From Escherichia coli (GTDB lineage Bacteria > Pseudomonadota > Gammaproteobacteria > Enterobacterales > Enterobacteriaceae), in assembly GCF_051903065.1 (NCBI RefSeq), contig NZ_CP178438.1: a DNA stretch of 64,000 bases. One strand, given 5' to 3'. Below the pieces are notes generated by a model. That model worked only from the letters and a program-made list of their open reading frames with translations, did no database searches and was not told the DNA's origin. The translations under genes were made by a program, and so were the position numbers. This document shows positions 48,871-54,874 of the stretch, one piece after another (positions within the stretch are counted from its first letter, which is position 1; every line of letters starts with the position of its first letter).

Positions 48871-50296
48871 TAATGCCGATCAGTTAAGGATCAGTTGACC
48901 GATCCAGTGGCTGTGTAAGAATCCGGAAACGCTCACTCGTTTCCGGATTTTTTTATGCACATTGGACAGGCTCTTGATCTGGTATCCCGTTACGATTCTC
49001 TGCGTAACCCACTGACTTCTCTGGGGGATTACCTCGACCCCGAACTCATCTCTCGTTGCCTTGCCGAATCAGGTACTGTAACGCTACGCAAGCGCCGTCT
49101 TCCCCTCGAAATGATGGTCTGGTGTATTGTTGGCATGGCGCTTGAGCGTAAAGAACCTCTTCACCAGATTGTGAATCGCCTGGACATCATGCTGCCGGGC
49201 AATCGCCCCTTCGTTGCCCCCAGTGCTGTTATTCAGGCCCGCCAGCGCCTGGGAAGTGAGGCTGTCCGCCGCGTGTTCACGAAAACAGCGCAGCTCTGGC
49301 ATAACGCCACGCCGCATCCGCACTGGTGCGGCCTGACCCTGCTGGCCATCGATGGTGTGTTCTGGCGCACACCGGATACACCAGAGAACGATGCAGCCTT
49401 CCCTCGCCAGACACATGCCGGGACCCCGGCGCTCTACCCGCAGGTCAAAATGGTCTGCCAGATGGAACTGACCAGCCATCTGCTGACGGCTGCAGCCTTC
49501 GGCACGATGAAGAACAGCGAAAATGAGCTTGCTGAGCAACTTATAGAACAAACCGGCGATAACACTCTGACGTTAATGGATAAAGGTTATTACTCACTGG
49601 GATTGTTAAATGCCTGGAGCCTGGCGGGAGAACACCGCCACTGGATGATCCCTCTCAGAAAGGGAGCTCAATATGAAGAGATCAGAAAACTGGGTAAAGG
49701 CGATCATCTGGTGAAGCTGAAAACCAGCCCGCAGGCACGAAAAAAGTGGCCGGGACTGGGAAATGAGGTGACAGCCCGCCTGCTGACCGTGACGCGCAAA
49801 GGAAAAGTCTGCCATCTGCTGACGTCGATGACGGACGCCATGCGCTTCCCCGGAGGAGAAATGGCGGATCTGTACAGTCATCGCTGGGAAATCGAACTGG
49901 GATACAGGGAGATAAAACAGACGATGCAACTGAGCAGGCTGACGCTGAGAAGTAAAAAGCCTGAGCTTGTGGAGCAAGAGCTGTGGGGTGTCTTACTGGC
50001 TTATAATCTGGTGAGATATCAGATGATTAAAATGGCGGAACATCTGAAAGGTTACTGGCCAAATCAACTGAGCTTCTCAGAATCATGCGGAATGGTGATG
50101 AGAATGCTGATGACATTGCAGGGCGCTTCACCGGGACGTATACCGGAGCTGATGCGCGATCTTGCAAGTATGGGACAACTTGTGAAATTACCGACAAGAA
50201 GGGAAAGGGCCTTCCCGAGAGTGGTAAAGGAGAGGCCCTGGAAATACCCCACAGCCCCGAAAAAGAGCCAGTCAGTTGCTTAACTGACTGGCATTA
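48871..50296 (+). mobile_element. IS4 insertion sequence (1426 bp), intact
   Basis: 18-bp imperfect terminal inverted repeats TAATGCCGATCAGTTAAG (48871-48888) and CTTAACTGACTGGCATTA (50279-50296); flanked by 12-bp direct repeat CCCCAGAAGGGG (48859-48870 and 50297-50308); contains a 442-aa transposase ORF. Confidence 0.92.
48955..50283 (+). CDS. insG: IS4 transposase (DDE family)
   Basis: 442-aa [43 protein letters not shown]..., recognised as the IS4 transposase. Confidence 0.9.
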
Positions 50297-50337: not shown

Positions 50338-53013
50338 TTAAGCGGATTTTTTCGCTTTTTTCTCAGCTTTAGCCGGAGCGGCTTCTTTTTTCGCTGCAGT
50401 TTCACCTTCTACATAATCACGACCGTAGTAGGTATCCAGCAGAATCTGTTTCAGCTCGGAGATCAGCGGGTAACGCGGGTTAGCGCCAGTGCACTGGTCA
50501 TCGAATGCATCTTCAGACAGTTTATCCACGTTCGCCAGGAAGTCTGCTTCCTGAACGCCAGCTTCACGGATAGATTTCGGAATACCCAGTTCAGCCTTCA
50601 GCGTTTCCAGCCATGCCAGCAGTTTCTCGATCTTAGCAGCAGTACGGTCGCCCGGTGCGCTCAGACCCAGGTGGTCGGCAATTTCAGCATAACGACGGCG
50701 AGCCTGCGGACGGTCATACTGGCTGAATGCAGTCTGCTTGGTCGGGTTGTCGTTCGCATTGTAGCGAATAACGTTACAAATCAGCAGGGCGTTTGCCAGA
50801 CCGTGCGGAATATGGAACTGGGAACCCAGTTTGTGCGCCATTGAGTGACATACACCCAGGAAGGCGTTCGCAAACGCGATACCCGCGATAGTCGCTGCAC
50901 TGTGAACACGTTCACGCGCTACCGGATTTTTAGACCCTTCGTGGTAGGACGCTGGCAGATATTCTTTCAGCAGTTTCAGTGCCTGCAGAGCCTGACCATC
51001 AGAGAACTCAGATGCCAGTACAGAAACATAAGCTTCCATGGCGTGAGTTACTGCGTCCAGACCACCGAAAGCACACAGGGACTTCGGCATGTCCATAACC
51101 AGGTTGGCGTCGACAATCGCCATATCCGGGGTCAGCGCATAGTCCGCCAGCGGGTATTTCTGACCAGTAGCGTCGTCAGTTACAACCGCAAACGGAGTGA
51201 CTTCAGAACCTGTACCAGAAGTGGTGGTGACAGCAATCATTTTCGCTTTCACGCCCATTTTCGGGAACTTGTAGATACGTTTACGGATATCCATAAAGCG
51301 CAGCGCCAGCTCTTCGAAGTGAGTTTCCGGATGTTCGTACATAACCCACATGATCTTCGCGGCGTCCATCGGGGAACCACCACCCAGCGCGATAATCACG
51401 TCTGGTTTGAAGGAGTTTGCCAGTTCTGCACCTTTACGAACGATGCTCAGGGTCGGGTCCGCTTCTACTTCGAAGAAGACTTCAGTTTCAACGCCTGCTG
51501 CTTTCAGTACGGAAGTGATCTGATCAGCATAACCATTGTTGAACAGGAAGCGGTCAGTCACGATGAGCGCACGTTTGTGGCCATCAGTAATCACTTCATC
51601 CAGCGCGATTGGCAGGGAGCCACGGCGGAAGTAGATAGATTTCGGAAGTTTGTGCCACAACATGTTTTCAGCTCGCTTAGCAACGGTTTTCTTGTTGATC
51701 AGGTGTTTCGGACCAACGTTTTCAGAGATGGAGTTACCACCCCAGGAACCACAACCCAGAGTCAGGGAAGGTGCGAGTTTGAAGTTATACAGGTCACCGA
51801 TACCACCCTGAGAAGCCGGGGTGTTAATCAGGATACGAGCCGTTTTCATTTTCTGACCGAAGTAAGAAACGCGAGCCGGTTGGTTATCCTGGTCAGTGTA
51901 CAGGCAAGAGGTATGACCGATACCACCCATAGCAACCAGTTTCTCTGCTTTTTCTACCGCGTCTTCGAAATCTTTAGCGCGGTACATTGCCAGAGTCGGG
52001 GACAGTTTTTCATGTGCGAACGGTTCGCTTTCATCAACAACGGTCACTTCACCGATCAGAATCTTGGTGTTTTCTGGTACAGAGAAGCCTGCCAGTTCAG
52101 CAATTTTATAGGCTGGCTGACCTACGATAGCCGCGTTCAGCGCACCGTTTTTCAGGATAACGTCCTGAACAGCTTTCAGCTCTTTACCCTGCAATAGATA
52201 GCCGCCGTGGGTTGCGAAACGTTCACGTACTGCGTCATAAACAGAGTCAACAACAACAACAGACTGTTCAGAAGCACAGATTACGCCGTTGTCGAAGGTT
52301 TTGGACATCAGTACAGATGCAACTGCACGTTTGATATCAGCAGTTTCATCAATAACAACTGGAGTGTTACCCGCGCCTACACCGATAGCTGGTTTACCGG
52401 AGCTGTATGCGGCTTTAACCATGCCCGGACCACCAGTCGCGAGGATCAGGTTGATGTCTGGGTGGTGCATCAGTGCGTTAGACAGTTCAACAGAAGGTTG
52501 ATCGATCCAGCCGATCAGATCTTTCGGAGCACCTGCAGCGATAGCAGCCTGCAGAACGATATCAGCCGCTTTGTTGGTGGCATCTTTTGCACGCGGGTGC
52601 GGGGAGAAGATAATGGCGTTACGGGTCTTCAGACTGATCAGCGATTTGAAGATAGCAGTTGAAGTCGGGTTAGTAGTCGGAACGATACCGCAAATAATAC
52701 CGATTGGTTCAGCGATAGTGATGGTACCAAAAGTGTCGTCTTCAGACAGAACACCACAGGTTTTTTCATCTTTATAGGCGTTGTAGATATATTCAGAAGC
52801 AAAGTGGTTTTTGATCACTTTATCTTCGACGATACCCATGCCGGATTCGGCAACGGCCATTTTCGCGAGTGGGATTCGAGCATCTGCAGCAGCCAGAGCG
52901 GCGGCGCGGAAGATTTTGTCTACTTGCTCTTGAGTGAAACTGGCATATTCACGCTGGGCTTTTTTTACACGCTCTACGAGTGCGTTAAGTTCAGCGACAT
53001 TAGTAACAGCCAT
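50338..53013 (-). CDS. adhE: bifunctional acetaldehyde-CoA/alcohol dehydrogenase
   Basis: 891-aa [38 protein letters not shown]. Confidence 0.98.
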
Positions 53014-53489
53014 AATGCTCTCCTGATAATGTTAAACTTTTTTAGTAAATCATCTGCTCGAATACGAGAGTATAGTCAGTGCGGTGATGATTTGCTTAAC
53101 CGATGAAAATCAAAAGCTTACTCGCGCTCACACTCACTGTGATTTACTAAAAGAGTTTAAACATTAGAGTTATTATCTCTAATGCGTCACTTCCAGGTGG
53201 CGTAAGCAAGATTACTCACTTCTGGGTACTGATTACGTGATCCAAATCAAATTTTTGCAAAGCTGACACCTTTCAGCATCGCTTTTCGCCATTATAGCTA
53301 ACAGTTAATAAATTGTAGTATGATTTGGTGGCTACATTAGCATGTTTTGCACAACTAGATAACAATAACGAATGATAGCAATTTTAAGTAGTTAGGAGGT
53401 GAAAAATGCTGTCAAAAGGCGTATTGTCAGCGCGTCTTTTCAACCTTATTTATGGCTAACATTATCCGGCTTTTGCTTCGGAGCTAACC

Positions 53490-54137
53490 GTGATTCAGAC
53501 CCTTTTTGATTTTCCCGTTTACTTCAAATTTTTCATCGGGTTATTTGCGCTGGTCAACCCGGTAGGGATTATTCCCGTCTTTATCAGCATGACCAGTTAT
53601 CAGACAGCGGCAGCGCGAAACAAAACTAACCTTACAGCCAACCTGTCTGTGGCCATTATCTTGTGGATCTCGCTTTTTCTCGGCGACACGATTCTACAAC
53701 TTTTTGGTATATCAATTGATTCGTTCCGTATCGCCGGGGGTATCCTGGTGGTGACAATAGCGATGTCGATGATCAGCGGCAAGCTTGGCGAGGATAAACA
53801 GAACAAGCAAGAAAAATCAGAAACCGCGGTACGTGAAAGCATTGGTGTGGTGCCACTGGCGTTGCCGTTGATGGCGGGGCCAGGGGCGATCAGTTCTACC
53901 ATCGTCTGGGGTACGCGTTATCACAGCATTAGCTATCTGTTTGGTTTCTTTGTGGCTATTGCATTGTTCGCTTTATGTTGCTGGGGATTGTTCCGCATGG
54001 CACCGTGGCTGGTACGGGTTTTACGCCAGACCGGCATCAACGTGATTACGCGTATTATGGGGCTATTGCTGATGGCATTGGGGATTGAATTTATCGTTAC
54101 TGGTATTAAGGGGATTTTCCCCGGCCTGCTTAATTAA
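53490..54137 (+). CDS. ychE: MarC-family (UPF0056) inner-membrane protein YchE; GTG start
   Basis: 215-aa hydrophobic ORF (M)IQTLFDFPVYFKFFIGLFALVNPVGIIPVFISM. Confidence 0.9.
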   Translation: MIQTLFDFPVYFKFFIGLFALVNPVGIIPVFISMTSYQTAAARNKTNLTANLSVAIILWISLFLGDTILQLFGISIDSFRIAGGILVVTIAMSMISGKLGEDKQNKQEKSETAVRESIGVVPLALPLMAGPGAISSTIVWGTRYHSISYLFGFFVAIALFALCCWGLFRMAPWLVRVLRQTGINVITRIMGLLLMALGIEFIVTGIKGIFPGLLN

Positions 54138-54175: not shown

Positions 54176-54874
54176 CTTCGTCATTATTTTTACTTTGTTC
54201 CCGCGCAGTTATCAAAAGCAAAAGGAATAGGTAAAAATATTCTTCTCAAATTACAGTTAGTTATAAGGATTTCCTTAACTGCTTCTCCTCACCATCATGT
54301 TATTTTCGCCACATCATAATCCTGGGCTTGCTGAAGAATAATTGAAATGATATTAGTAATTCCACTGCCTTTGGTAGAGGAAAGTGCTAAATAATAATCA
54401 ATTGTTAAATTATTGTGCATTTCACTGCTGGAACTGTAATCAGAAAAGATAGACATGCTTAACCAATCTCTATTTGATTGAATTTAAAGATGTTTGTTAA
54501 GACATGGAAGCAAGCTATAGATTCTGATACGGTCAATAAAAGAGAATTGCTTAACAATTTTGCAAAATGTATTGGCGAGTAAGAAGCGCATTTGGTACTT
54601 TCCGGGCAACCGCCAGGCGATTCTTTATTGGTAATGAGAATAATTAACAATTAAAGAGCGTCGCGAAAGAATAATGTGTCTCGACAGGGGAGACACAGTA
54701 CGAATCGACATAAGGTGATCGTCTGAATCACCAGAATAAATAAAGTCGGTGATAGCAATCCGTAACGATAAAGTAACCTGACAGCAGAAAGTCTCCGAGC
54801 CTGTGCAGGGTCCCATTCCGGGATTACACATGCTGGTTAATACCAGTAATTATAATGAGGGAGTCCAAAAAACA

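Follow-up and report, generated by a model that had tools for sequence, protein, structure and literature searches.

The 17-codon open reading frame upstream of Escherichia coli ychE is the known small-protein gene ychT and overlaps a conserved DNA block

The 17-codon open reading frame that lies immediately upstream of ychE in the 64-kb stretch of Escherichia coli DNA analyzed here (the window) is, with near certainty, the known gene ychT, and it is a real gene that is translated. ychT is present in both the K-12 reference annotation and RefSeq and is not a new gene. We estimate a probability of roughly 0.85 for the best explanation of the locus as a whole, namely that it holds the known, translated ychT, with a possible role for its translation as a leader in cis graded separately and held much more tentatively. 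What we add to the published record is a comparative picture of the locus, in which codons 1-10 of ychT coincide with a DNA block conserved across Enterobacteriaceae and with an FlhDC site reported previously.

Results

An initial annotation of the window, made from the raw sequence, had described an AGGAGG motif followed by an ATG that opens a 17-codon frame ending 30 nt before the GTG start of ychE, and all of its coordinates are exact (Table 1). The Shine-Dalgarno (SD) sequence is separated from the ATG (53406-53408) by the 6-nt spacer TGAAAA, and the codons that follow read ATG CTG TCA AAA GGC GTA TTG TCA GCG CGT CTT TTC AAC CTT ATT TAT GGC TAA. The same annotation had called this ribosome-binding site the strongest of the adhE-ychE region, and our duplex calculations agree: UAGGAGGUGA forms the best anti-SD duplex of the adhE-ychE spacer on either strand (-11.5 kcal/mol), compared with -7.4 kcal/mol for the SD of adhE itself. 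The bare pattern, AGGAGG-N4-9-ATG, occurs once in the window, while dinucleotide shuffles predict 2.06 ± 1.3 occurrences and 90 of 100 shuffles contain at least one. Because the pattern lies within chance expectation, the significance of ychT rests on external evidence and not on the pattern.

Table 1. Positions in the window of ychT, ychE, and the features that overlap or adjoin them.
Feature	Coordinates	Strand	Basis or remark
Shine-Dalgarno sequence of ychT, UAGGAGGUGA	53392..53402	+	AGGAGG core 53394-53399
ychT CDS, 17 sense codons plus TAA (53457-53459), product MLSKGVLSARLFNLIYG	53406..53459	+	
Spacer from ychT stop to ychE start, 30 nt	53460..53489	+	Sequence
ychE, 215 aa, GTG start at 53490	53490..54137	+	ORF list; RefSeq annotation
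Overlapping alternative ORF, GTG start, 36 codons	53399..53509	+	ORF list
Conserved nucleotide block, ~36 nt, over the ychT start and codons 1-10	53399..53436	.	Alignments, Fitch counts
Published candidate FlhD4C2 box, AATGCTGTCAAAAGGCGTATT-GTCAGCGCGTCTTTTCAACCTTA	53405..53448	.	ychT codons 1-14; PMC9962212 Table 1

Downstream of ychT, the short spacer carries the SD of ychE (GGAG, 53480-53483), and TCCGG (53465-69) can pair there with TCGGA (53478-82) in a weak hairpin. The presumed downstream cistron encodes YchE, which RefSeq describes as a NAAT/MarC-family inner-membrane protein and which is itself uncharacterized. ychT and ychE share a reading frame, with their starts 84 nt, or 28 codons, apart (53406-53492) and the TAA at 53457 as the sole separator. 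In several Citrobacter and other genomes, one or the other of the upstream frames is open into ychE (243-245 codons); an N-terminally extended YchE is formally possible in those genomes, and the open run-through is probably due to chance. The alternative ORF with a GTG start, to which the initial annotation makes no reference, lies in the +1 frame relative to ychT, begins inside the ychT SD, and overlaps the start of ychE by 20 nt.

Two further features of the neighborhood differ among strains. Directly downstream of adhE, the window carries an intact IS4-family transposase of 442 aa (Nterm_IS4 and DDE_Tnp_1 domains; 48955-50283, + strand); the same site is occupied in K-12 by no more than the insZ pseudogene remnant and in strain 536 by an IS4 transposase with a frameshift. 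The ychE-oppA spacer of the window contains a 53-aa ORF (54295-54456, - strand) that corresponds to the RefSeq hypothetical protein WP_000021850.1 of strain 504239 and has no Pfam match. Elsewhere, this spacer holds an IS5 insertion in K-12 and a different hypothetical protein, WP_001211511.1, in strain 536.

The frame, which the initial annotation suggested could encode a small protein or serve as a translated upstream ORF, coincides with an annotated gene. The 17-codon frame corresponds to positions 1298514..1298567 of NC_000913.3 (offset 1245108), which is ychT of MG1655 (b4771, YP_010051181.1). Although the window derives from an E. coli other than K-12, its ychT sequence and that of MG1655 are identical, with two SNPs elsewhere in the 507 nt compared. 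The same CDS is annotated as "protein YchT" (WP_211180492.1) in strains 504239, A10, BL21(DE3), and 536. By megablast, the adhE-ychE spacer is present in 5,423 of 5,426 complete E. coli genomes, and the feature annotated there is "protein YchT". The RefSeq PGAP annotation labels the YchT CDS as gene 'ychE', doubling the name of its neighbor, and this mislabel has been carried into published tables, where the BL21 and 536 YchT entries of Fesenko et al. appear under 'ychE'.

Mapping of translation starts at 53406, which the initial annotation had proposed as a check, has already been published, and with a positive outcome. In RiboReport (PMC8921622), ychT appears under "experimentally verified novel sORFs", with Table 1 of Weaver et al. 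2019 (mBio 10:e02819-18) given as the source. According to the preprint of the latter study, Onc112 and retapamulin profiling was combined with chromosomal SPA tagging; candidates were required to have both Onc112 and retapamulin start peaks of >5 rpm together with elongating-ribosome density; immunoblots were positive for 36 of 38 SPA-tagged candidates; and the legend of Table 1 reads "New small proteins detected". In an independent re-analysis, Table S4 of Fesenko et al. (PMC11188072) reports a retapamulin TIS value of 743 and an RPF value of 58 for ychT in MG1655, and values of 1449 and 369, respectively, in BL21. The same study scored ychT as differentially regulated in stress, assigned YchT the labels nonTM, nonCDD, and nonDis, and reported within-cluster values of 3e-5 for dN and 0.013 for dS, the resulting dN/dS of 0.002 being based on very few sites. 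The supplement of the Stringer et al. preprint and a Salmonella small-protein census have no entry for the ychT locus. It is this published initiation and tagging evidence that establishes ychT as a real gene, which the bare sequence could not have done. As a calibration, a reader working from raw sequence nonetheless picked out a 17-codon gene that had already been validated and proposed the very experiment that validates it.

We compared 80 ychE loci from Enterobacteriaceae, one genome per species (a set from which E. fergusonii is absent), together with MG1655, for a total of 81. adhE and ychE are divergent neighbors separated by a spacer of ~476 nt in nearly all of the 80 fetched loci. Conservation of the frame in relatives, raised in the initial annotation as a further check, is borne out within Escherichia, where all copies are intact, and only in part across Enterobacteriaceae. 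A canonical start followed by at least 10 open codons is found in 57 of 81 loci (43 with ATG, 14 with GTG). The frame stops at codon 3 (GTG-CTG-TGA) in 8 loci, from C. amalonaticus, C. sedlakii, Atlantibacter, and Siccibacter, and the start codon is absent in the remaining 16 (ATA, GTT, ACG, and others). In these 24 loci that lack the frame, ychE keeps its SD and GTG start. The strong ychT SD (-11.5 kcal/mol) is found only in 7 Escherichia and 2 Citrobacter of the 81 loci, the others having only GGTGA (about -2.8 kcal/mol), and by this comparison it appears to be essentially Escherichia-specific.

Substitution patterns across these loci do not resemble those of a coding sequence. Codons 1-10 of ychT show no third-position excess (80/66/78 Fitch steps by codon position in 81 loci), whereas ychE, on the same tree, gives 17/11/119, 23/0/170, and 1/0/152 steps in 30-nt windows and 510/123/3984 over the whole gene. 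An N-terminal MLxK(G/S)V(S/L)SAR is widespread among the loci. Conservation is absent from the 3' half of ychT and from most of the ychT-ychE spacer, and it resumes at the CGGAG SD of ychE, which is itself nearly invariant (0-4 Fitch steps). The upstream frame ends at -2 or +4 relative to the ychE start in most Citrobacter, Enterobacter, and Raoultella. Judging from these alignments, the peptide sequence is probably not what selection preserves.

Within the genus, all 7 Escherichia lineages and E. coli N96 keep both SD and ATG, followed by an ORF that spans 15-27 codons (lengths of 15, 17, 26, or 27). The SD, ATG, and codons 1-10 are invariant except for codon 3. Codons 11-17 differ, encoding LFNLIYG, IFTLFYG, or IFTLVQR, and indels in some Escherichia shift the C-terminus to ...MANIIRLLLRS, such that the frame ends 2 nt before the ychE GTG. 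In E. coli N96, a 1-nt deletion produces MRLKGVLSARLFNLFMANIIRLLLRS, which also terminates 2 nt short of the GTG and carries no YchT annotation; in Escherichia E69, the stop of the ychT frame is likewise close to the ychE start (-2 or +4). The ychT-ychE spacer is invariant within Escherichia but for one base, and 5408 of 5424 E. coli records are at least 99% identical over the 111-nt ychT region.

What is conserved beyond Escherichia is a nucleotide block. It has the consensus GTGAA..TGC..AAA..GCGTAT(C/T)(T/G)TC.GC, is found in more than 20 enterobacterial genera, and occurs as a single copy in the window. Its columns accumulate 0-5 Fitch steps, compared with 12-27 in the flanks; its conservation is non-periodic and is seen with or without an intact ychT ORF. 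By eye, none of sigma70 (GTGAAG-N17-TATCTT), sigma32, sigma54, sigmaE, CRP, FNR, Cra, Fis, or NarL fits the block convincingly.

The block overlaps the published candidate FlhD4C2 box. Takada et al. (PMC9962212) observed an FlhDC genomic-SELEX peak with an intensity of 26 in the adhE-ychE spacer. In the same study, a gel shift was positive and mutation of flhD slightly lowered adhE mRNA, the expression data covering adhE and not ychE. The FlhD4C2 consensus is AAYGSSNNAAATAGCG-N10-12-CGCTATTTNNSSCRTT, with key positions A1, A2, G4, and A9-A13, and the left half of the E. coli box matches 6 of these 8. AAA 53414-16 of the left half is nearly invariant, A1 and A2 (53405, 53406) differ among genera (8 and 14 Fitch steps, respectively), and the right half is poorly matched and unconserved. 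Klebsiella and Raoultella are non-motile genera. Since A1 and A2 vary, the right half-site is unconserved, and the block is kept in Klebsiella and Raoultella, FlhDC alone is not sufficient to account for conservation of the block.

The position of the block relative to mapped transcription start sites (TSSs) is consistent with a regulatory site for adhE. The SMRT-Cappable-seq supplement (PMC6131387) places minus-strand adhE TSSs at 53037, 53147, 53286, 53326, and 53363, the most distal of which is 43 nt from the ychT ATG. The block would lie at about -36 to -73, and the FlhDC box at about -42 to -85, from this distal TSS, a typical position for an activator. A DNA-level role of the block is plausible. 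Forward-strand TSSs for ychT or ychE are absent from the SMRT-Cappable-seq tables (PMC6131387), a Cappable-seq supplement (PMC4782308) has no TSS near the locus, and a scan for consensus promoters found none on the + strand upstream of ychT.

The adhE leader also contains a perfect-ended inverted repeat, GCTGACACCTTTCAGC (53262-53277), that is highly conserved across genera and that our scan flagged as terminator-like on the + strand. We take this repeat to resemble a Cra (FruR) operator. Cra is a known repressor of adhE.

Explanations of the block at the RNA level fail, because we found no Rfam match, no folding above that of shuffled sequences, and no consensus pairs. Specifically, an Rfam scan of 52900-53700 at E<=1 returned no known RNA family and only sub-threshold chance matches to SCARNA7 and rliB; the MFE of the leader is -26.2, where shuffled sequences average -28.4 (z = +0.62); at -5.9, the local hairpin does no better than its shuffles (-6.9); and RNAalifold on 37 genera yielded 0 consensus pairs. 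This last result also gives no support to a GCUGA/UCAGC inverted repeat at the ychT start codon as an RNA structure. The terminator scan returned only 52940 and 53262, with no terminator-like site between ychT and ychE.

Discussion

That ychT is translated leaves the question of what its translation is for. The reading that we rank first, at odds somewhat short of even, is that the act of translating ychT matters in cis and the peptide does not. Its rank reflects two features: all Escherichia keep the strong SD, the ATG, and the open frame, and the upstream frame in many lineages stops at -2 or +4 of ychE. In such a scheme, ychT would be the first cistron of a ychT-ychE leader. Its strong SD would recruit ribosomes, which would finish 30 nt upstream of the ychE GTG start and GGAG SD, or 2 nt upstream of the ychE start in natural frameshift variants and most Citrobacter. 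Translation of ychT would thereby keep the leader covered with ribosomes, deliver ribosomes beside a non-AUG start codon, and tune the initiation of ychE, and the 17-aa YchT would have no sequence-specific role in trans.

Several observations weigh against this leader role. Translational coupling typically calls for a stop codon that overlaps or lies within a few nucleotides of the downstream start, or for sequestration of the downstream initiation region. In the window and in K-12, the gap is 30 nt, and neither the leader (z = +0.62) nor the local hairpin (-5.9 vs -6.9) is more stable than shuffled sequence; with no conserved pairs either, there is nothing obvious for ribosomes to unmask. The SD of ychE itself is nearly invariant, and ychE retains it, along with the GTG, in the 24 loci without the frame, which indicates that there is no general need for ychT. 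Co-transcription of ychT and ychE is assumed, the SMRT-Cappable-seq tables having no forward TSS. Finally, invariance of the ychT start region is explained equally well by the conserved DNA block.

This last point is the core of the reading that we place second and regard as almost equally plausible, in which translation of ychT is incidental. Under this explanation, the block is a cis-regulatory DNA element of the adhE/ychE region, for example an upstream activator site such as an FlhDC box; in Escherichia an SD happens to precede an ATG within it; and the peptide is functionless. In its favor, the conservation is blocky, at the nucleotide level, without periodicity, and persistent where the ychT ORF is broken. 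The strong SD is confined to Escherichia and two Citrobacter, chance would supply about two SD-ATG patterns of this kind in 64 kb, FlhDC binding and a slight decrease of adhE mRNA upon flhD mutation have been reported, and the block is suitably placed upstream of the distal adhE TSS. On the other hand, incidental translation does not readily explain why the SD, ATG, and open frame are kept in every Escherichia lineage examined, why almost all E. coli records are so nearly identical over the region, or why the published within-cluster dN/dS is so low, although that ratio reflects very few sites. The variability of A1 and A2, the unconserved right half-site, and the presence of the block in non-motile genera argue against the FlhDC version in particular. 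A more specific proposal, which we consider somewhat unlikely, is that the block is a cis-regulatory DNA element shared by the distal promoter of the divergent adhE and by ychE, and that ychT is a young ORF of the Escherichia lineage that arose on top of it by gain of the strong SD. If true, the locus would be a dual-use sequence and would offer an example, open to dating, of a small gene born de novo.

We next consider whether YchT is a 17-aa protein that acts in trans and whose sequence matters, for example as a modulator of YchE or of another neighboring protein. YchT is a detected and annotated protein, it is nearly invariant in E. coli (again with a published dN/dS of 0.002 from very few sites), and its N-terminal motif is widespread. 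However, the C-terminal half is unconserved even among Escherichia, natural variants of E. coli and Escherichia carry frameshifts in it, 24 of 81 loci have no frame or a truncated one, and coding periodicity is lacking. Given this variable C-terminus, dispensable frame, and lack of a coding signature, we regard a trans-acting peptide as unlikely and rank it last among the serious options. The AlphaFold-Multimer screen of neighboring proteins by Fesenko et al. (PMC11188072) bears on both sides of the question. Its only above-cutoff pairing for YchT, at 0.81, is with WP_024174317, which is OppA; YchT-YchE scored 0.42, under the authors' cutoff of 0.75, and YchT is not a TM helix. Since OppA binds oligopeptides generically and does so in the periplasm, whereas YchT lacks a signal peptide, the YchT-OppA score is most simply viewed as a docking artefact.

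Two other readings fare far worse. One holds that the GTG-initiated frame, with its (V/M)(K/N)xAxK(R/K/Q)RIF(S/C)A... product, is the ancestral gene and that the ychT frame is secondary. This frame has a GTG or ATG start and at least 10 open codons in 68 of 81 loci (13 lack a start), more than the 57 of 81 that hold an intact ychT frame, and it opens with ATG in Klebsiella, Raoultella, and Kosakonia. Its openness is uninformative, however, because conserved flanking bases bar stop codons at the variable positions. None of the 81 loci has a usable SD for it (the best is -4.2 kcal/mol), and in E. coli its GTG lies within the SD of ychT itself. Its substitutions are not periodic (88/88/84 Fitch steps), it has no Pfam match, and the published TIS assignment and annotation go to the ATG. 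We therefore reject the 36-codon ORF as a gene and consider its ancestral status very improbable. The other reading, a transcription-attenuation leader peptide that senses an amino acid on behalf of the putative amino-acid transporter YchE, draws on the position of a short ORF ahead of a NAAT-family gene, within its 5' leader, and on Leu at 4 of 17 codons, but it is effectively refuted by the lack of a tandem run of regulatory codons, of a terminator-like site between ychT and ychE, of a stable or conserved alternative structure, and of peptide conservation.

For functional work on YchT, the lack of peptide conservation past the first ~10 residues, and the overlap of those codons with the block and the reported FlhDC site, suggest testing for effects in cis on ychE and adhE before seeking a partner for the peptide.

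Comparison with known systems helps to place ychT. Like trpL, hisL, and thrL, ychT is a very short leader ORF with a good SD; unlike them, it has no run of regulatory codons, no terminator or antiterminator, and no conserved RNA structure. AcrZ, KdpF, and MgtS are small proteins that bind and regulate transporters. YchT resembles this class in being encoded beside a gene of a membrane-transporter family, but it differs in that it is not predicted to be transmembrane, its C-terminal half is unconserved, and its score with YchE is sub-threshold. A third comparison is with the other upstream small ORFs described in the preprint of Weaver et al. 2019, for which changing the start codon to a stop codon altered expression of a downstream lacZ fusion. 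The preprint text contains no lacZ-fusion test of ychT-ychE. As with those small ORFs, profiling revealed ychT as a short frame that is translated ahead of a larger gene, within its 5' leader.
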